Positions 1-10,422 of a stretch of 34,476 nt of DNA are shown in pieces (position 1 is the stretch's first letter; every line of letters begins with the position of its first letter). This stretch comes from a virus. Its lineage: Duplodnaviria > Heunggongvirae > Uroviricota > Caudoviricetes. The notes below the pieces were generated by a model. That model was not told the origin of the DNA. It saw only the letters and a list, made by a program, of their open reading frames with translations, and did not search any database. The stretch is from IMG/VR virus record IMGVR_UViG_2698536573_000006; one strand, written 5' to 3'. The translations under genes and the position numbers were made by a program.

Positions 1-1005
1 TTAATCCCCCGTGGACACTGCGTGGACACTTACGCCACCTTTCAGCGGATTAAGGGCCACCGCATCCTGCAGGTAATCCGGTGCAAAATGCGCATATGCC
101 ATTGTTTGCTGAATGGTTGCGTGACCAAGAATCTTCTGAAGCGCAATAATGTTTCCTCCGTTCATCACAAAATGGCTGGCGAACGTATGCCGCAGCACAT
201 GTGCAGCCTGGCCTTTTGGTAAATCGGGCTTAACTCTTTTCAGCGCCAGGCAGAATTCCCGGTACTTCACCTCAAACAAGCCGCCTGTTTCTCTGGTTTT
301 GATCGCCTCACAAACTGCCTGCGAAATTGGCACTGTTCTCTTCCGGCCATTTTTGGTTTCAAGAAACGTTACACGGTTATGAACTATCTGTTCACCACGA
401 AGCTTACAAGCTTCACTCCAGCGCGCCCCTGTGCTTAAACACAAAAGCGCAACACGCCAGTAGTCGCCCTCCAGTGTATCGAGCAATAGCGCCACTTCCT
501 TCTGTGACAGGAACGCCATTTCTCGTGGAGATACATAAAGAATAGAAATTCCCCTTACTGGATGTTCTGCATCCCAAAGACCTATTTTTTTCAGCACGGT
601 AAACATTCCGGATAACCGATTCATGTACCTGTTAGCAGATGACGGTTTCAATCCTTCAGCTATCTTTTGAGAACGCCACGCGATAATTTTCAGCTTATCA
701 AGATCCACAGCCTGCATATCAGCGCCAAGCTCATTGATTATGTTGCGCAGTTGTTTTCGGTCTTCTTCCGCCTTACGCCTGTGCTGGCCGTGATACATCC
801 ACCACAACTCAAGCAAATCATTTAGCGTTCGACGATCACGGTAGCCCTGTATATATTCCCGCTTTTCAGCGTTCGCCATGATGTAGCGTTCAGTGGCCAC
901 CGCTACCGATTTTTTGTCAAATACCTTACGCACGCGCTTTCCCTTGCGTCCGTTCGGCCTGATGTCCAGCAAATAACGACCATCTTCGAGCTTCTTAATC
1001 GACAT
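1..1005 (-). CDS. int: tyrosine integrase, P2 Int family
   Basis: ORF 1..1020; translation from MSIKKLEDGRYLLDIRPNGRKG to HAVSTGD aligns along its length with my recollection of P2 Int (ARWSEA, HVLRHTFASHF, LGH, YAHFAPDYLQDA motifs). Start chosen at ATG 1005, which follows a GGAGGG Shine-Dalgarno. Confidence 0.9.
   Translation of the reverse strand: MSIKKLEDGRYLLDIRPNGRKGKRVRKVFDKKSVAVATERYIMANAEKREYIQGYRDRRTLNDLLELWWMYHGQHRRKAEEDRKQLRNIINELGADMQAVDLDKLKIIAWRSQKIAEGLKPSSANRYMNRLSGMFTVLKKIGLWDAEHPVRGISILYVSPREMAFLSQKEVALLLDTLEGDYWRVALLCLSTGARWSEACKLRGEQIVHNRVTFLETKNGRKRTVPISQAVCEAIKTRETGGLFEVKYREFCLALKRVKPDLPKGQAAHVLRHTFASHFVMNGGNIIALQKILGHATIQQTMAYAHFAPDYLQDAVALNPLKGGVSVHAVSTGD
11..28. repeat. 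putative attL core (direct repeat with 33296-33313)
   Basis: gtggAcactgcgtggaca here versus gtggTcactgcgtggaca at 33296-33313, with a 13-nt exact core cactgcgtggaca. It lies in the last codons of int, as expected for a P2-type attP core at the int 3' end. Confidence 0.45.
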
Positions 1006-1101
1006 TACGAAGCCCTCCAATGAACCGCTCTACAATTTCTCCAGCCTCTTTCCAGCAATAATCAGACCAGACAAAAAGCAGGTCTAACCAGTTTTCTGGC
1101 C

Positions 1102-1422
1102 TCAGCGGGATAATTTTTGGATTGTTTCGGTTGAAACGCGATCTCCCTCCGAATTGCAGGAACCATCAAGAGAGAGAGCCGGAGAAATTTGCCCGACCTC
1201 CGGCATCGTTTCATCTGTTGATAACCAATAAGCATACTTCTTAAATTTAGGGTGTTTCGTAACCTTAAGTAAGGCACCCTCTGTTACTTGCTTCCCCCTC
1301 ACCTCATAGTTAGTTACCGTCCCATAAGGCAGCCCAACACAATCCGCAAACTCCTGGCGGGTCATACCTTCTGCTTCACGAATCAGGCGAAATTTTTCAC
1401 CCATGCTTGACAAAGATGCCAT
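1102..1422 (-). CDS. immunity repressor, P2 C-like HTH protein
   Basis: About 106 aa with an HTH segment MTRQEFADCVGLPYGTVTNYE and a C-terminal GQISPAL motif resembling P2 C. Divergent from cox. Start at ATG 1422 chosen for the GGAGGA upstream; alternative starts up to 1476 exist. Confidence 0.75.
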   Translation of the reverse strand: MASLSSMGEKFRLIREAEGMTRQEFADCVGLPYGTVTNYEVRGKQVTEGALLKVTKHPKFKKYAYWLSTDETMPEVGQISPALSLDGSCNSEGDRVSTETIQKLSR

Positions 1423-1535
1423 ATCGGGCATATCCTCCATCGCAACATGCCACATCGGGCACAAACATAAAAACACTCAAATAAGCCGATATAAGCCATT
1501 TTGAGCCATTCGAACGAATTAGGGAGATTACCACA
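1423..1535. promoter_or_regulatory. putative divergent early/repressor promoter-operator region (Pe/Pc analogue)
   Basis: Intergenic region between divergent C-like and cox-like genes. Contains direct repeats agccatt...agccatt about one helical turn apart (taagccattttgagccattcg). Promoter elements not mapped. Confidence 0.4.
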
Positions 1536-1823
1536 ATGAGCGAATCAGAGCTTGAGGGGTTCATTCAGGTAGCACCATATCCACTTGAAGCGGTGCCATA
1601 TCAACTATTTGCCAAGATGATTGGTCGCAAAGAATCAACCGTCAGAACCATGATTGACGCTGCAAAGTTACCAACGATTGACTTTGTGAAACCAGGTTCA
1701 GTGAAGACGCGTGCATCAGAAAACTGGGTATATCTGCCAGCATTTAACGAAGGCATGCGCAAAGCGTTTTTTGAGCAACCGAAAGAACGCCGCGACGCAT
1801 GGTTGTTGTGGCTGGGACTTTAG
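1536..1823 (+). CDS. cox: Cox-like excisionase / transcriptional regulator
   Basis: 95 aa; VPYQLFAKMIGRKESTVRTMID and WVYLPAFNEG...RDAWLLWLGL match P2 Cox motifs as I recall them. AGGGAG Shine-Dalgarno upstream of the ATG. Confidence 0.8.
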   Translation: MSESELEGFIQVAPYPLEAVPYQLFAKMIGRKESTVRTMIDAAKLPTIDFVKPGSVKTRASENWVYLPAFNEGMRKAFFEQPKERRDAWLLWLGL

Positions 1824-3848: not shown

Positions 3849-4111
3849 CCATTCTGGACTACATCGCTACCCATCCGGGTTGTAGCGGCGGAGAAATCGC
3901 CGCAGCACTGAATACCCCAACCACAGCCATCAATGCTGAGTTACGCCGACTCTGGCGCGGCGGCTTAGTCATCAGAACAAACCGCAGCACAGGTGGTCGC
4001 GCTCGCAAAGCAGGAGGCCAGGCTTCTTACCACGTAAACCCGATGCCGTTCGAGTGTAGCAATCCACTTACTCACATGTTTAACCTGCTACTGAAGGAAG
4101 CCAGAGCATGA
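3845..4111 (+). CDS. putative winged-helix DNA-binding protein
   Basis: 88 aa; the N-terminal segment ILDYIATHPGCSGGEIAAALNTPTTAINAELRRLWRGGLV looks like a MarR/wHTH recognition unit. AGGAG Shine-Dalgarno. Confidence 0.6.
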   Translation: MTILDYIATHPGCSGGEIAAALNTPTTAINAELRRLWRGGLVIRTNRSTGGRARKAGGQASYHVNPMPFECSNPLTHMFNLLLKEARA

Positions 4112-4407
4112 GCGCCATCAACCACCAGGAATTACGCGAACTGGCGACTGACCTGCAACGAATGGCAACGCATCAAAAATTACTGGCGTTTCGCGCAATG
4201 CTCTCGCCATCTGCCGTGCTGGCACTGCTGGATGAGCTGGAGCACGCCAGAACCATGGCTCCTGCCATTCGTCTGACGCTCCATCATGAAATCAAGGATT
4301 TTTGCGCGACGCTGGAGTCACCAGGTGAATCAGAAACGCCGGAAGCAATGCAGCAGGAGCTGCTGCAACGCATCGACAACGTTTTCGATTTTTTCCTTAA
4401 CCAGTAA
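4108..4407 (+). CDS. hypothetical early protein
   Basis: 99-aa ORF, ATGA-coupled to the upstream gene; acidic and helical in appearance. Confidence 0.55.
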   Translation: MSAINHQELRELATDLQRMATHQKLLAFRAMLSPSAVLALLDELEHARTMAPAIRLTLHHEIKDFCATLESPGESETPEAMQQELLQRIDNVFDFFLNQ

Positions 4408-4418
4408 AGGACCGCGAT

Positions 4419-4622
4419 ATGAACAAAAAGACCTGGTTTCGCGCATACATGTGGGCGCTGGTATGCGTCCTCGTCTCTCTCATTCTGTATGCAGGACTAC
4501 TCCCCCGAATGATTTCATCAGACAGCTCCTTCCTGGTATTGCTGGGAATTTTCATTGCCATGCTGTACCCGGCAGGCGTTGTTCGCCTTTTCAGTAAGTA
4601 CATCAAGGAAATCAAACAATGA
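4419..4622 (+). CDS. small two-helix membrane protein, possible SPFH partner
   Basis: 67 aa with two hydrophobic helices; AAAGGA Shine-Dalgarno; its stop overlaps the start of the SPFH gene. Confidence 0.55.
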   Translation: MNKKTWFRAYMWALVCVLVSLILYAGLLPRMISSDSSFLVLLGIFIAMLYPAGVVRLFSKYIKEIKQ

Positions 4623-5449
4623 AGAAATTCAAACTTTTTCAGATTCTCCCGCTTTTTGCCGCCATCCTGCTGGTTGGTTGCGATCGCGTTGAGCCAGGTA
4701 ATGTGGGCATCAAAGTCAACAAACTGGGCGACGACAAAGGCGTCGGTGAAGTGGTTGGCGTTGGCCGCTACTGGACAGGCTGGAATACAGAGGTTTACAT
4801 CTTCCCGACCTTCAAACAAATGAAGACCTACGATGAGCCGTTCAGCTTCCAGATGAGCGACGGCACAAGCATCGGCTATCACATCGGTGTGGCCTACAAA
4901 GTTGATCCATCCAAAGTTACCACAGTGTTTCAGACCTACCGCAAAGGCGTGGATGACATTACCGACACTGACCTGCGCCAGAAGATCGCCGATGCACTCA
5001 ACCGACTGGCCAGCAAAATGACCACCGATAAGTTTATCGACGGTGGTAAGTCTGAACTGCTGGATTCAGCACTTAAAGATATTCAGGAAGAGATGACCCC
5101 CATCGGCATTCAGGTCATGAGCCTCTCTTATGTCGGTAAACCGGAATATCCGCCAACCGTTATCGACAGCATTAACACCAAAGTCACGGCAAACCAGAAA
5201 ACCCTGCAACGTGAACAGGAAGTCAAGCAACGCGAAGCTGAAGCCAACATGCTGCGCGCAGAAGCTGCCGGACAGGCCGATGCCATTCGCACAAAAGCCC
5301 AGGCTGAAGCCGACGCCATTCGTTTACGCGGCGAAGCTCTGCGCCAGAATCCCGGCGTTATGGAGCTGGAAGCGATCAACAAATGGAACGGCACGCTGCC
5401 GCAATACATGACCAGTAACACCGCTGTTCCGTTCGTTCCCGTGAAGTAA
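4619..5449 (+). CDS. SPFH/band-7 (stomatin-prohibitin-HflK/C-like) lipoprotein
   Basis: 276 aa; N-terminal signal with lipobox LLVGC; the central domain and C-terminal Ala/Glu/Gln-rich coiled coil (EAEANMLRAEAAGQADAIRTKAQAEADAIRLRGEA) are typical of SPFH proteins. Confidence 0.8.
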   Translation: MKKFKLFQILPLFAAILLVGCDRVEPGNVGIKVNKLGDDKGVGEVVGVGRYWTGWNTEVYIFPTFKQMKTYDEPFSFQMSDGTSIGYHIGVAYKVDPSKVTTVFQTYRKGVDDITDTDLRQKIADALNRLASKMTTDKFIDGGKSELLDSALKDIQEEMTPIGIQVMSLSYVGKPEYPPTVIDSINTKVTANQKTLQREQEVKQREAEANMLRAEAAGQADAIRTKAQAEADAIRLRGEALRQNPGVMELEAINKWNGTLPQYMTSNTAVPFVPVK

Positions 5450-5512
5450 TTAAATCCGGCCAGTGAAAACCGCTGGCCGGAGCAGTATCAGGATTTTTTA
5501 GTATGCCGTTCT

Positions 5513-5640
5513 CACAAAAAAACCGCTTGCCATGCCGCAATCAGTCAGGTTACATTTCCGCTGCACCTCACAAAACGGGTGCCGGGTTTCGCAGCCTGCT
5601 GACTACACAAGCGCACAACCGCGCCAGCGGTTTTTTTGTG
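5513..5640. repeat. perfect 14-bp inverted repeat flanking a roughly 100-nt structured spacer
   Basis: cacaaaaaaaccgc at 5513-5526 and its exact reverse complement gcggtttttttgtg at 5627-5640; the intergenic region also holds a GC hairpin with a ttcg loop at about 5690-5712 and reiterated ctacacaag/cttgtgtag motifs. Confidence 0.6.
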
Positions 5641-5816
5641 CGTACTGTATTGCCACGTTTTTTTCGCGTCAGAATTATGGCGGGGCGTACGGGGCCGACT
5701 TCGGTCGGGCCGGGTTCTTGTGTAGCCGGTACTGCGAACCTCGTACGTCTCGCCACCCACAGTTTCGCAGCTCTGGATGGTGAGTTTTCACAACTTACTA
5801 CACAAGGGGCCACACC

Positions 5817-6047
5817 ATGGCAAACCGCAAACCACACCGCGCTATCGCGGAGCGTCGTCACATCCAGACTGAAATCAACCGCAGGCTTTCCCGCGCATCA
5901 CGCGTCGCGCAAATCATGCACATCAATATGTTGCATGAGCGCAGCCACGCACTATCAAACATTTATTCCGCCTCTGTTTTCAGCTATCTGGCGGATGATC
6001 TGCACGAGCTTCAACAGCTCATCCAGCAGCAAAACAAACTCCATTAA
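5817..6047 (+). CDS. hypothetical small protein
   Basis: 76-aa ORF with an AAGGGG Shine-Dalgarno 8 nt upstream of the ATG. Confidence 0.5.
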   Translation: MANRKPHRAIAERRHIQTEINRRLSRASRVAQIMHINMLHERSHALSNIYSASVFSYLADDLHELQQLIQQQNKLH

Positions 6048-6491: not shown

Positions 6492-9239
6492 ATGACGGCA
6501 GAGTACATCAGGGACTGGCAACAACCGCGCCACGCAGTGGGGCGTGAAGGAACGGGGATCCCCGCTCCTGAATCCGCGCTTTCCTCCTGGCTGGATGCCT
6601 ACCGGGCAGAGAACGAGCGCCGCCAGGAAATGGCTGATGCGGCGTTCTCCGCCACGCCGCTGGGCAACCTGATTAATAAAAGCCTGGACGCACAGGAAAA
6701 ACAGGACAAAACCATCACACTGGCAGGAGACGCCAGAAAGCAGGCACGCGGCGCGGTGGATGAAGCCATGGCCTCGCTGCGCCTGCTGCCGTCCTATCTG
6801 CGCGATCCGCTTATTCGCCACCTCTCCTTCCTGCGCAAAAAACAGGAATCTGACCGCCAGAAAGGTAAAAAGAACCAGCAGGCTGAACGCTACGCGCGCG
6901 GGACCCTGCGCAAAATATTCGAACGTCTGGACCGCACCGACCACCGCTGGCTGACACCGGGTTATCGCGCCCTTGCCGGACGCGAACGCCTGGATGATTT
7001 GCTTTACCTCCCGCAGCTCAACAAGCACCAGATACAGACGCTGGCCACCATGACGGCGGCGATGTTCAGCAGCACCTTCGAAAAACTCTGCGATGGCTTT
7101 GGCGCAACCGATGGCGAGCTGACCATGGATGTAACCCTGAAGGCGTATCAGATGCTGGCCCGCATGGCGTTACACCTGCACGCCATGCCTCCACATTATG
7201 ACGCACTGACAACAGACAAAGACCGGAGGAACGAACCGGACACGGAGCTGCTGCCGGGCGCAATCCTTCGCCTGACCTGTGCGGAATGGTGGAAACGCAA
7301 ACTGTGGCTGTTACGTTGCGAGTGGAGAGAAGAACAACTCCGCGCCGCCTGTCTGGTTTCCAGAAAAACATCGCCCTATCTGAGCCAGGACGCGTTAAGC
7401 GAGTTTCGCGCACAGCGCGAGAAGACACGCGATTTCCTGAAAAGTTTCATGCTGGAAAACGAAGACGGGTTCACGATTGATCTCGAGACAGTGTATTACG
7501 CGGGAGTAAGTAACCCGGTTCACCGTAAGGCAGAAATGATGGCCACCATGAAGGGACTGGAACTTCTGGCCGAAGCCCGTGGCGACAGAGCGGTGTTTCT
7601 GACTGTCACCTGCCCGTCAAAATACCACGCCACAACAGAGAACGGTCATCCGAATCCCAAATGGAACGGGGCCACCATGCGCGACTCCAGCGATTACCTG
7701 GTTAACACGTTTTTTGCGGCTGTCCGCAAAAAACTGAACCGCGACGGTCTGCGCTGGTATGGCATCCGCACGGTGGAGCCTCACCATGACGGCACCGTGC
7801 ACTGGCATATGATGGTCTTTGCTCATCCGGAAGAAATCGACACCATTGTGTCCCACACCCGCGATATTGCCATTCAGGAAGACCGCCACGAGCTGGGCGA
7901 TGACATAACTCCGCGCTTTAAGGCGGAGTACGTCGACGGCTCAAAAGGCACACCAACCAGCTACATCGCCACCTACATCGGAAAGAACCTGGACAGCCAC
8001 GCCGTGGATGGCATCGACCCGAAAACGGGCAAGCCACGCGTTGACCACGAAACCGGAAAATCAATGGCCGAGAGCGTGGAGCGCGCCATCGGCTGGGCGC
8101 GCCTTCACCGGGTCCGCCAGTTCCAGTTCTTTGGCATCCCCTCCCGTCAGGTGTGGCGTGAACTGCGCCGCCTTGCCAGCCAGATGGCACGCAACCCGGA
8201 AGGCCCGCAACGACTGAAGGACGACGCAATGGATGCGGTACTCGCTGCCGCTGATGCCGGGTGTTTTGCCTCCTACATTGAAAAACAGGGTGGCGTACTT
8301 GTTCCACGCAAAGACTACCTGATTCGCACCGCCTACGACCTCGCCGATGAGCTGAACGATTACGGCGAACAGAGCGTACAGATTTACGGGATCTGGTCAC
8401 CACTCATCGGGGAATCCTCCCGTGTGTGCACGCATCCGGATAACTGGAAGCTGGTAAGACGTAAACCGGAAGCGGAAGACAGCGCCCGCGAAAATGGTTT
8501 TGACCTTCAGGGCGGCTCTGCCGCCCCTTGGACTCGTGGCAATAACTGTCCCCGTGTACAGGAAACGGACAACAACGGGACAGAACAGCCGGAGGAACGG
8601 CCAGCACCGTGGCCGCAGCTTCCTGAAGGCGTTGACGTGAATGAATGGATGCGCTCACTGAAACGGCACGAACGCCGGGCACTGATGCGTTCGCTGCGTG
8701 ACAAACAGGCAAAAAACAGCAGTGATGAAATGCAGAACTGGACACAGAGCCGCAAACAGCCACAGCCTTTGCCTGATAACCACGAGTTACTCGCTAAAGA
8801 ATGGCGGGAGTCTGCTGAATCTCTCGGCCTGCATATCGGTGAACAGCAGATGCAGCACCTGTTACGGGGCGGCAGTCTGTACGTTGGCGGCAGCATCATT
8901 ACACCGCAGGGATTTGAAATTGTACGCAAACCGGATACCCGCCCGGACAGCCGAATCACGCAGCTCTGGCAACGCCTGAGTCGTAATCACGGCGTAAGCA
9001 GCACGGAGATCCGCCATAACCCGGTCGCCAGCTATCTGGAACAACTAGAGGCATCAGACCCTGAAGCCGCCGCACGCCTGGCATCCACACTTCAGCAAGA
9101 CCAGAACACCATGAAAACACCAGTTACCGTACTTTCTGACATGCTGCGCGCCATCCGCGACGCAGAGCACGCACAGAGAATCAATGAAACCACTAAACAT
9201 GCTCGCAAAAAAATCAGTTTATTGCATCGAACACGATAG
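6492..9239 (+). CDS. A: replication initiation endonuclease, P2 gpA family (rolling circle)
   Basis: 915 aa; the central region (HHDGTVHWHMMVFAH ... TSYIATYIGKNLD ... WARLHRVRQFQFFGIP) matches the conserved P2 A nickase core as I recall it. Confidence 0.9.
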   Translation: MTAEYIRDWQQPRHAVGREGTGIPAPESALSSWLDAYRAENERRQEMADAAFSATPLGNLINKSLDAQEKQDKTITLAGDARKQARGAVDEAMASLRLLPSYLRDPLIRHLSFLRKKQESDRQKGKKNQQAERYARGTLRKIFERLDRTDHRWLTPGYRALAGRERLDDLLYLPQLNKHQIQTLATMTAAMFSSTFEKLCDGFGATDGELTMDVTLKAYQMLARMALHLHAMPPHYDALTTDKDRRNEPDTELLPGAILRLTCAEWWKRKLWLLRCEWREEQLRAACLVSRKTSPYLSQDALSEFRAQREKTRDFLKSFMLENEDGFTIDLETVYYAGVSNPVHRKAEMMATMKGLELLAEARGDRAVFLTVTCPSKYHATTENGHPNPKWNGATMRDSSDYLVNTFFAAVRKKLNRDGLRWYGIRTVEPHHDGTVHWHMMVFAHPEEIDTIVSHTRDIAIQEDRHELGDDITPRFKAEYVDGSKGTPTSYIATYIGKNLDSHAVDGIDPKTGKPRVDHETGKSMAESVERAIGWARLHRVRQFQFFGIPSRQVWRELRRLASQMARNPEGPQRLKDDAMDAVLAAADAGCFASYIEKQGGVLVPRKDYLIRTAYDLADELNDYGEQSVQIYGIWSPLIGESSRVCTHPDNWKLVRRKPEAEDSARENGFDLQGGSAAPWTRGNNCPRVQETDNNGTEQPEERPAPWPQLPEGVDVNEWMRSLKRHERRALMRSLRDKQAKNSSDEMQNWTQSRKQPQPLPDNHELLAKEWRESAESLGLHIGEQQMQHLLRGGSLYVGGSIITPQGFEIVRKPDTRPDSRITQLWQRLSRNHGVSSTEIRHNPVASYLEQLEASDPEAAARLASTLQQDQNTMKTPVTVLSDMLRAIRDAEHAQRINETTKHARKKISLLHRTR

Positions 9240-9284
9240 AAATATAGAGCTAAGGCCGCCCTAGGAATAAGGAGGCCTTGAAAA

Positions 9285-10058
9285 TCAACCTATCTTCTTA
9301 TGAAGTAAAATTAATTTCTGTATTAATTTGGAATGAAACATAGATATATCAGAAATTCTTATTTCATTAGGCGAGTCTATATGATTGGAAACTTCTTCCT
9401 CCAAGGAGTCACAAATACTTTCTAGATTTTCAATATCTGCATTTAATTCTGGAAAACTATTAAACAAATATAATGAATCCCGTAACTCTCCTAGTTTTGG
9501 TAAAAGAGTATTACTGAATACACTAAGAAACTCCTCTTCTGATAATGCCATGGAGTTTTTAAAACTTTGCACAACATCGAATGCCAACCCATTAATTTTA
9601 GGCATAATTACTTCTCTTACCCAATATCCTTCATTAATAGCTTCTTTACGTTCTTTTCTATGTTGAACATAAGGAATAACAAAGGATGAAACTAAGGCAA
9701 ATAAAGAGATGCCAATAGAAATCCACTCTGGACCATTTTCCGGAACCTTTACAATATTATATATATCATGGGAATTTGGAACATCTTTGAAATAATTAGC
9801 AAATAAATCTTTTTTGTTATCCCTTGCCAGAGATAACTTATGAAAGGTGTCGTTTGCCTTTTCACAAAACATCAAGCCATCATTCGGGTTTCCGGATAAC
9901 AAAAACGGTGATGATATACCACTAAGTCCTGAATCGGAAATATAAAAAGGCGTGTTTGGATAAAGTGACTCATTACATTCAATGTTTTCTTTATTGGAAA
10001 AATCTGTCACAGAGCAAGCTGCGGGGAATATAAAAAAAATGACAGACAGCGCTGTCAT
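9285..10058 (-). CDS. cargo island gene 3: signal-peptide plus single-TM membrane protein
   Basis: ORF 9285..10094. N-terminal hydrophobic signal (MTALSVIFFIFPAACS), a roughly 110-aa extracytoplasmic region, one TM helix (WISIGISLFALVSSFVIPYV), then an acidic helical C-terminal domain. AT-rich. Start ambiguous (10058 or 10094). Confidence 0.65.
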   Translation of the reverse strand: MTALSVIFFIFPAACSVTDFSNKENIECNESLYPNTPFYISDSGLSGISSPFLLSGNPNDGLMFCEKANDTFHKLSLARDNKKDLFANYFKDVPNSHDIYNIVKVPENGPEWISIGISLFALVSSFVIPYVQHRKERKEAINEGYWVREVIMPKINGLAFDVVQSFKNSMALSEEEFLSVFSNTLLPKLGELRDSLYLFNSFPELNADIENLESICDSLEEEVSNHIDSPNEIRISDISMFHSKLIQKLILLHKKIG

Positions 10059-10077
10059 TTTGATTTGAAAAATATTT

Positions 10078-10422
10078 TTAAAAGAAGGGAACATTTTTAT
10101 GTAAGCCTCTCCTTACAGCTCTATCTAATTCAGAAAGCATACCTTCTTTATATTCACGACCATCAAGTACAGTGCGACTATAAAATTCGCTAGGCGAAGA
10201 AAATTTCGGCAAAACCGTTTCAAGCATACCTAGAAAGTATGAGCTTGATACAACAATTCCCTTGGGGATCAATAGATATAATCTATCATTACTGGTTGTG
10301 CAAAATTTCCCTATATTAAAGTAATCATAGGCCTGGCGCCCATTAGAACGTCCAGCAAAAAGTTTCTTGTTACTATCTTTTACTAACTTATTGAAATCTA
10401 TGGTGATGTCAGCCATTTTCAT
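10078..10422 (-). CDS. cargo island gene 2: small STAS-like (DUF4325-like) protein
   Basis: 114 aa; the segment LLIPKGIVVSSSYFLGMLETVL resembles the conserved core of STAS-like small proteins that pair with GHKL kinases. This is from memory, not a search. Begins 10 nt after the upstream gene's stop. Confidence 0.7.
   Translation of the reverse strand: MKMADITIDFNKLVKDSNKKLFAGRSNGRQAYDYFNIGKFCTTSNDRLYLLIPKGIVVSSSYFLGMLETVLPKFSSPSEFYSRTVLDGREYKEGMLSELDRAVRRGLHKNVPFF

Follow-up and report, generated by a model that had tools for sequence, protein, structure and literature searches.

The window analyzed here is the whole 34,476-nucleotide stretch of the virus record IMGVR_UViG_2698536573_000006 (Caudoviricetes), a P2-family prophage of the P88 type. 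At positions 4419–5449 it carries two genes, one for a 67-amino-acid membrane protein with two predicted transmembrane helices and one for a 276-amino-acid lipoprotein precursor of the SPFH/Band-7 superfamily. The gene pair is real and is widely distributed in phages. Region 4108–5700 is 96% identical to phage P88 (DNA identity over 1.6 kb), in which the counterparts are annotated as gp11 'membrane protein' and gp12 'lipoprotein' or 'putative SPFH domain protein'. With P88 gp12 the SPFH protein shares 99.3% identity, and the neighbours are also the same. P88 gp11/gp12 and the families PHROG 1130 and PHROG 200 represent essentially the same genes, with no substantive difference. Sequence comparison adds three points. 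The small protein is, on the evidence of adjacency across lineages and of gene fusions, an integral partner of the SPFH protein; the body of the SPFH protein is under very strong constraint; and the pair behaves as a clean insertion/deletion with an early, repressor-side operon position in three phage backbones.

The features of the locus are as follows.

4408–5510, plus strand: the whole accessory cassette (presence/absence segment), from alignments with the EC958 and AST240 prophages
4419–4622, plus strand: 67-amino-acid two-transmembrane partner protein (PHROG 1130, E 1.3e-22)
4619–5449, plus strand: 276-amino-acid SPFH/Band-7 lipoprotein precursor (Pfam PF01145, E 1.2e-30; PHROG 200, E 2e-111)
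4619–4681, plus strand: signal peptide with lipobox L18-V19-G20-C21; codon 22 (4682–4684) is Asp, the +2 position
4679–5146, plus strand: SPFH alpha/beta domain, residues 21–176, from model secondary structure and Foldseek matches
5153–5347, plus strand: single long helix, residues 179–243, rich in Ala, Glu, Gln and Arg, corresponding to the wall helix of SPFH cages
5366–5446, plus strand: C-terminal motif L-E-A-I-N-K-W-N-G-x-L-P...P-F-x-x-x-K, conserved in alignments
5455–5481, plus strand: stable GC-rich hairpin (RNA fold −22.3 kcal/mol, z −4.1)

An earlier note on this DNA, prepared from the letters alone, had described an SPFH-family lipoprotein with a small two-helix membrane protein, and the Pfam and PHROG matches, the lipobox and the plus-strand coordinates listed above bear out that description. 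The genes meet in an ATGA overlap at the junction AACAATGAAG, where the ATG of the SPFH gene occupies 4619–4621 and the TGA stop codon of the partner gene 4620–4622. The Shine-Dalgarno-like sequences AAAGGA and AAGGAA lie 8 and 11 nucleotides upstream of the two starts. The overlap suggests that the two genes are translationally coupled.

The hairpin at 5455–5481 begins six bases 3' of the SPFH stop codon. A T-run at 5494–5499 begins 13 nucleotides past the stem, and because of this displacement the hairpin is not a canonical intrinsic terminator. A terminator, an RNA-processing site and a recombination scar were all considered as its role. A scan for sigma-70-like sites found none between 2993 and 5527 and was at background level as a whole (9 sites found, 8.5 expected). 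A phage moron, an autonomous insert expressed in the lysogen, has its own promoter and terminator on either side of a segment that related phages lack. The cassette is such a segment, and the promoter scan at background and the downstream hairpin without an adjacent T-run gave no support for a promoter and terminator of its own.

The SPFH protein

Pfam PF01145 (Band_7) matched residues 23–209 with 107.3 bits against a cutoff of 23.6 and was covered from profile position 2 to 176 of 176. Both the PHROG 200 'lipoprotein' and the PHROG 1130 'membrane protein' profiles were matched end to end by their respective proteins. The window protein is a member of the SPFH superfamily, since it scores above the PF01145 gathering score and has the arrangement of the solved cage-forming members, in which a long helix comes after the alpha/beta domain; it falls in none of the characterised branches. 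Current annotations of homologues read 'lipoprotein', 'hypothetical protein' or, mistakenly, 'serine protease'; the last label, carried by P88 gp12 and by the copies in Stx phages, was rejected since Band_7 is the only Pfam match.

The earlier note had drawn a link to HflK and HflC, which holds at the level of the superfamily only. The NCBIfam models for HflK/HflC (TIGR01933, TIGR01932, NF008181 and NF008259) gave 19–25 bits against cutoffs of 134–660, and HflK/HflC membership was rejected because these scores are far under the equivalog cutoffs. The protein has a lipobox signal peptide in place of the transmembrane anchor, and only one SPFH gene is present. Sequence profiles reached only HflK, HflC and the prohibitin-2 coiled coil, with E values of about 1e-3, the long-helix stretch being covered by the prohibitin-2 and HflK matches.

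The N-terminus of the precursor consists of MKKFK, a hydrophobic core, the lipobox L18-V19-G20-C21, which conforms to the pattern [LVI][ASTVI][GAS]C, and Asp22. In alignment A1 (36 homologues, 72–96% identity) the lipobox Gly is nearly invariant and the Cys is kept in all except four sequences; Asp is the commonest +2 residue, and Glu occurs in a few close homologues. An Asp at +2 after the lipidated Cys marks a lipoprotein for retention in the inner membrane of E. coli (the Lol-avoidance rule), and D22 of the window protein agrees with this rule. In the homologues P0113, P0114, P0117 and P0120, from contigs of ~110–250 kb, the lipobox Cys is replaced by Tyr (G-Y-D) and the protein is otherwise intact; P0117 alone accounts for 175 contigs. 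This clade is apparently of the SSU5-like phage-plasmid type, probably the same type as the copy at 3945–4775 of locus L108, and it would be anchored by a signal helix that stays uncleaved, not by a lipid. The Sutterella relatives are anchored by a transmembrane helix in place of a lipid.

An AlphaFold model of the window protein (mean predicted local distance difference test score, pLDDT, 73) consists of the signal helix, the SPFH domain, a 65-residue helix, and a short helix with a flexible tail. The homologue P0124, for which a deeper alignment was available, gave the same architecture at pLDDT 81, with values >90 across most of the SPFH domain and the long helix. The long Ala/Glu-rich stretch that the earlier note had called a coiled coil corresponds to this predicted helix (residues 179–243), which consists to 58% of A, E, Q, R and K. 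Foldseek searches of the PDB returned full-length matches with E values of ~1e-13 to PHB1/2, erlin1/2, HflK, HflC and stomatin at 14–19% identity, and a next tier (E 1e-8 to 1e-5) with flotillin, QmcA and major vault protein. No single family stands out in the top group.

The C-terminal motif lies in a region of low model confidence. Its residues W256, N257, G258, P261, P271, F272 and K276 are invariant in A1, and the W, G and P are still invariant in alignment A4 (50 sequences, 42–56% identity).

The small partner protein

The 67-amino-acid protein contains two hydrophobic segments between a basic N-terminus, MNKKTWFR, and a basic C-terminus, RLFSKYIKEIKQ. As both termini are basic, an N-in/C-in topology is predicted, with the loop L27-P-R-M-I-S-S-D-S-S facing outward, presumably to the periplasm. 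Neither Pfam nor NCBIfam has a family for this protein. Across lineages, only the loop motif G..P-x-[LM]-[IV]-S and a Gly in the second transmembrane helix are retained. The NfeD OB-fold domain (PF01957) gave no Pfam match in the partner, in its homologues or in the N-terminal parts of the fusions described below, and 67 amino acids are too short for an OB-fold; an NfeD-type partner was rejected for these reasons.

The association of the two genes is found far beyond P88. An upstream partner homologue occurs in nearly all loci examined, including relatives in which the SPFH protein is only 44–54% identical. An open reading frame of the PHROG 1130 type lies directly upstream of the SPFH gene, usually overlapping its start, in P88-like, Stx2a/phiP27-type lambdoid, P1-like (RCS47) and SSU5-like elements. 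The same pairing is present in Pantoea, Yersinia, Kluyvera and Lelliottia, in Chimaeribacter, Sutterella and Dyella (SPFH 44–54% identical), in prophages of Nevskia and Pseudomonas, and in Pseudomonas phage 5400. In the virulent phage 4MG the PHROG 1130-type frame is one gene away from the SPFH gene. By its profile matches to PHROG 200 and PHROG 1130 in adjacent, co-oriented genes, the window locus belongs to this type of pair.

About 17 of the 150 top cluster representatives look like single-chain fusions, in which the hairpin is followed by a third hydrophobic helix that contains a lipobox-like Cys and then by the SPFH body. In the fusions P0124 and P0135, PHROG 1130 (E 1e-7 and 2e-6) and PHROG 200 were matched in one chain. 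Such fusions are Rosetta-stone evidence, as read from protein sequences, for a 1:1 physical partnership. Because the fusions have three membrane passes and basic ends inside, the SPFH body is predicted to lie outside the cytoplasm.

Accessory status and distribution

The cassette is a clean presence/absence polymorphism of ~1.1 kb in the Cox-to-gpA early operon of P88-like prophages. When aligned with EC958 and AST240, the cassette begins directly behind the TAA (4405–4407) of an Ead/Ea22-like gene and ends at ~5505–5512, just ahead of an isrK-like RNA. The slot is empty in EC958, where the flanks are joined, and the corresponding interval measures 1,554 bp in EC958 and O157:H7 strains versus 2,641 bp in the window. 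The supposition that the pair is no core early gene of the P2 family is confirmed by close P88-like prophages such as EC958, which lack exactly this ~1.1 kb, and by AST240, which has another gene there. In the AST240 prophage (L106, 857–1408) this gene is a 183-amino-acid open reading frame with two helix-turn-helix or winged-helix regions, for which PADLOC gave only weak matches at the level of the helix-turn-helix (E 1e-4 or worse).

The P88-type context with the cassette is present in 141 complete E. coli genomes, and many other genomes have the context without it. At a DNA identity of at least ~75%, an SPFH homologue was found in 715 of 5,426 complete E. coli genomes (about 13%), at 417 chromosomal places and 389 on plasmids. 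Among phage records, tblastn detected a homologue in 412 of 50,697 (roughly 0.8%). The virulent carriers include Vequintavirinae, Ounavirinae, Bruynoghevirus, phiCbK-like and jumbo phages, and the tally of 412 also takes in Lak and crAss-like phages. The term 'prophage-encoded' in the earlier note holds for this window and is too narrow for the family, given the homologues in strictly virulent phages. Both chromosomal 'bacterial' examples that we opened (Nevskia and Pseudomonas putida) turned out to lie within prophages. Some relatives are named 'prohibitin family protein' at NCBI, and a cluster look-up added only Serratia entries named 'SPFH domain-containing protein'.

In Candidatus Symbiopectobacterium (L092, 5001–5828) a stop codon splits the SPFH gene into pieces of 50 and 209 amino acids and the start of the partner gene is truncated, which is consistent with gene decay in a symbiont. 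JANQNF010000027.1 (L099), a metagenome-assembled genome contig labelled 'archaeon', has a typical partner frame and the first ~100 SPFH residues, 65% identical to the window protein; it is probably a mis-binned bacterial or phage contig, or the gene is truncated.

Operon position and timing

From cox (1536) to gpA (6492), all genes of the window are co-oriented and tightly packed, 3' of the C/cox divergent promoter region. The P1-like phages have the pair in place of tciABC, with upl on one side and the tRNA upstream of ban on the other, and the P1 record annotates that ban operon as controlled by the C1 operator Oban. In lambdoid prophages it is found 3' of cI on the leftward strand, before xis and int. 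A function in lytic development is favoured by these early, repressor-side operon positions and by the presence of the family in virulent phages. The position of the cassette points to, and does not prove, a role in lytic growth rather than a function expressed in the lysogen.

Divergence and selection

The mature SPFH protein is 95–97% identical among the P88-like, P1-like and Stx-phage copies; the corresponding identities are 25–45% for the partner and 32–65% for the signal peptide. For the mature SPFH protein, the ratios of nonsynonymous to synonymous substitution rates (dN/dS) among phage lineages are 0.011 (dS 1.08), 0.077 (dS 0.38) and 0.028 (dS 1.06). Within 39 P88-like allele pairs, the SPFH body has a polymorphism-based ratio pN/pS of 0.02, against 0.28 in the partner. 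A dispensable phage gene is not usually constrained to this degree. The constraint fits a protein that would be an interface over its entire surface, as in a closed oligomer, and/or one that would contact a conserved host component.

The divergence jumps at the lipobox, where the DNA homology to the Stx-phage and P1-like copies starts (~4676–4679). Recent horizontal spread of the SPFH body was rejected as the cause of this jump for the P1-like comparison, in which a dS of ~1.1 with a dN of 0.012 speaks for strong constraint and not for recency; for the Stx comparison (dS 0.38) recent spread is possible. Among the P88-like alleles, the pS of the SPFH gene is 0.145, four times the value of the partner gene (0.037), and this contrast between adjacent genes hints at recombination within the cassette.

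Other features of the window

The left part of the window carries the following genes.

1–1020, minus strand: integrase
1102–1476, minus strand: helix-turn-helix repressor
1536–1823, plus strand: Cox
6492–9239, plus strand: replication protein gpA, preceded by co-oriented, tightly packed small genes

The sequence 3' of the cassette contains an isrK-like RNA (5563–5637; 64 bits in Rfam, cutoff 50) and a C4 antisense RNA (5673–5760; 83 bits in Rfam, cutoff 45), with sigma-70-like sites ahead of them at 5527–5556 and 5650–5678. They are followed by a 76-amino-acid open reading frame (5817–6047, plus strand) that matches the Pfam 'Derepression protein family' PF25738 (E 7e-8). The stretch 5527–6047 resembles an antirepressor module of the P1/P7 immI type or P4 type under antisense RNA control, here within a P2-family prophage, and RefSeq labels it as a pseudo 'ash family protein'. 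In the P88 record (8856–10131), a ParM-like segregation protein and a partition protein are annotated directly after gpA; such genes are not usual in a P2-family phage that integrates.

Comparison with known systems

E. coli HflK/HflC, the partners of FtsH, share with the window protein the SPFH domain, the long helix, a body on the periplasmic side (predicted here) and full-length Foldseek matches with E values of ~1e-12 to 1e-13. They differ in sequence (17–19% identity), in having an N-terminal transmembrane helix where the window protein has a lipid anchor, and in forming a K/C pair where the window has a single SPFH gene and a separate two-helix partner. The best Foldseek match is the prohibitin PHB1/PHB2 ring (9o9z, E 1.3e-13), and a coiled-coil segment aligns with prohibitin-2, including GEAL-x-x-NP-x-x-x-x-L. 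Prohibitin is only 14–16% identical; the window protein is distinguished by its phage/bacterial origin, its lipoprotein anchor and the C-terminal motif KWNG-x-LP.

The co-transcription of an SPFH gene with a small membrane partner is also the theme of the SPFH-NfeD operons, such as E. coli QmcA-YbbJ and the archaeal stomatin PH1511 with PH1510, and QmcA was matched structurally in the QmcA-YbbJ complex 8z5g. The partner in the window, with 67 amino acids and no Pfam match, lacks the NfeD/OB-fold. QmcA faces the cytoplasm, whereas the window protein is predicted to face the periplasm.

A further SPFH protein with small dedicated membrane proteins is YdjI (SamI) of Bacillus subtilis, which is reported to rely on YdjG/YdjH and to be tied to PspA and the handling of membrane stress (PMC8581546; 10.64898/2026.02.06.704340). 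YdjI is cytosolic and is recruited to the membrane, has different partners, and has no sequence kinship to the window protein beyond the superfamily. T5 Llp and phi80/N15 Cor are likewise phage-encoded lipoproteins that alter the host envelope. They are small outer-membrane lipoproteins that plug a specific receptor, whereas the 28-kDa SPFH scaffold of the window carries a signal for retention in the inner membrane and gives no hint of being specific for a receptor.

Discussion

We propose that the two proteins constitute one accessory membrane module that is carried by many unrelated phages. The SPFH body would face the periplasm, tethered to the outer leaflet of the inner membrane, and the long helix would multimerise it into a ring or dome enclosing part of the inner membrane, by analogy with prohibitin, HflK/C, erlin and stomatin. 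The fold and the near-total residue conservation suggest such an assembly; every solved full-length SPFH protein is reported to be an oligomeric ring or dome (PMC12624060). The hairpin partner would supply the membrane-spanning part in a 1:1 ratio as a transmembrane adaptor. The module would be made early in lytic development, in the window from within the Cox-to-gpA operon, and would condition the host inner membrane via a conserved host component or property and not via a variable phage protein. Candidate targets are an FtsH-type protease, membrane integrity or the proton-motive force, and DNA entry. The protease is the obvious candidate by its topological analogy to the HflK/C and prohibitin systems, and a role in membrane integrity agrees with the data equally well. 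We give this scaffold explanation as a whole, including the early conditioning of the inner membrane, about an even chance of being correct.

Several observations weigh against it. The partner is missing beside the SPFH gene in Bruynoghevirus DL54, in Ounavirinae SeKF_13 and in the chromosomal Shigella/E. coli copies L085 and L086, so that the SPFH protein may function without it. The +2 residue of some relatives is Glu, Ser or Asn, and by the E. coli rule retention in the inner membrane is therefore not universal. The transmembrane part of the P0124 fusion model has pLDDT values of only 49–68, and at this low confidence no conclusion was drawn on contacts between the hairpin and the SPFH body. 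The promoter scan, at 9 sites versus 8.5 expected, was uninformative, and therefore an internal promoter for the cassette is possible. Finally, the Pasteurella prophage protein PM0222, which is HflK/C-like and of similar size, was detected in an ordinarily grown lysogen and in outer-membrane vesicles (PMC9872710). If PM0222 belongs to the same family, this speaks against strictly lytic expression and a strict inner-membrane location.

A first alternative is a phage version of HflK/C, in which a periplasmic SPFH ring encloses or binds host FtsH and alters substrate access, thereby stabilising phage membrane or regulatory proteins or biasing the choice between lysis and lysogeny. The periplasm-facing orientation is common to HflK/C and, topologically, to mitochondrial prohibitin. 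Mitochondrial prohibitin is a partner of an FtsH-type AAA protease. HflK/C is reported to be one as well (PMC12048511). The weak profile similarity to HflK, HflC and the prohibitin-2 coiled coil points in the same direction, the very low dN/dS fits a conserved host target, and the idea has been printed for another phage-borne SPFH protein (PMC4936722). However, every HflK/HflC equivalog model failed by a wide margin, the structural similarity to HflK/C is no better than that to erlin or stomatin, and the window protein has no HflK/C transmembrane anchor. The contact with FtsH that it supposes is an analogy from topology. Phages of the P2 and P1 types and virulent phages are not known to use a CII/FtsH switch, and nevertheless have the module. 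We regard this explanation as unlikely.

A second alternative is superinfection exclusion or abortive infection, in which the scaffold would block the genome entry of other phages, or would restrain a holin-like partner until a second infection collapses the membrane. The cassette is an accessory insertion/deletion in a prophage and the pair is predicted to be located in the membrane. The partner resembles a class II holin in its two helices, N-in/C-in topology and basic tail. In lambdoid prophages the pair takes the cI-proximal leftward position, where lambda has rexAB, and in P1-like phages it stands in place of the TerB-like tciABC genes, which are annotated with a mention of colicin resistance. 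Exclusion proteins are encoded by virulent phages as well, examples being Imm and Sp of T4. On the other hand, PADLOC-DB 2.0 gave no match for the SPFH protein and only a noise-level one for the partner (E 0.008 over 21 residues), and a literature search on SPFH and anti-phage functions returned nothing relevant. The slot is presumably outside the recognised P2 defence hotspots, and the sole alternative cargo seen in it is a DNA-binding protein without a meaningful PADLOC match. The extreme conservation across lineages is atypical for exclusion and defence proteins, which typically diversify fast, and a covalent fusion fits a constitutive complex better than a pair of toxin and keeper. Exclusion thus appears quite unlikely. 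The FtsH and exclusion ideas of the earlier note are plausible analogies, and they are not new.

A lysogenic-conversion lipoprotein that would affect the animal host or the fitness of the bacterium and not the biology of the phage, such as a vesicle-borne agonist of Toll-like receptor 2 (TLR2), is a very improbable explanation. It derives from Pasteurella multocida, in which PM0222 (25–35 kDa) is expressed in the lysogen, is vesicle-borne and signals through TLR1/2, and its deletion attenuates virulence in mice (PMC9872710). However, PM0222 is only a candidate member of the family, virulent phages that infect soil, plant and aquatic bacteria commonly carry the family, and the cassette lies inside repressor-controlled early operons. 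Activation of TLR2 is moreover generic to bacterial lipoproteins. A neutral passenger, hitch-hiking or decaying without current function, would account for the dispensability of the pair in many near-identical P88-like prophages and for its pseudogenisation in Candidatus Symbiopectobacterium, but is effectively refuted by the selection analysis (dN/dS 0.01–0.08 for the SPFH body and pN/pS 0.28 for the partner), with further evidence against it from reading frames intact in hundreds of phages, a pairing conserved from 44% to 99% identity, and natural fusions of both proteins in several distant cluster representatives.

SPFH genes in phages have been noted since 2006 without a function (PMC1524935), the speculation on HflKC, FtsH and CII appeared in print in 2016 (PMC4936722), and a paper of June 2026 states that the reason why a phage genome carries the gene 'remains unclear' (PMC13239085). 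Our literature searches on SPFH with anti-phage, prophage and superinfection exclusion found no functional study. The only experimental work that we found concerns Pasteurella PM0222 (PMC9872710), a candidate relative of the window family.

For the window itself the practical gain is modest, as annotations of both genes exist already in P88 and the PHROG families. SPFH cages, including those of HflK/C, prohibitin, erlin, stomatin and flotillin, are a current structural focus, and their cellular roles are debated. The compact phage version, predicted to be lipid-anchored, with an adaptor of 60–80 amino acids and dispensable, could be a tractable probe of such cages. In its furthest form, which we consider unlikely, our proposal would be that many unrelated temperate and virulent phages possess a dedicated prohibitin-like cage in the periplasm, almost invariant in sequence and equipped with a transmembrane adaptor of its own, and use it early in infection to control a universal machine of the inner membrane. 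The cage might, for instance, fence in FtsH, or seal the membrane so that entry or damage is prevented. If true, this would be a general and previously unrecognised step of host takeover.

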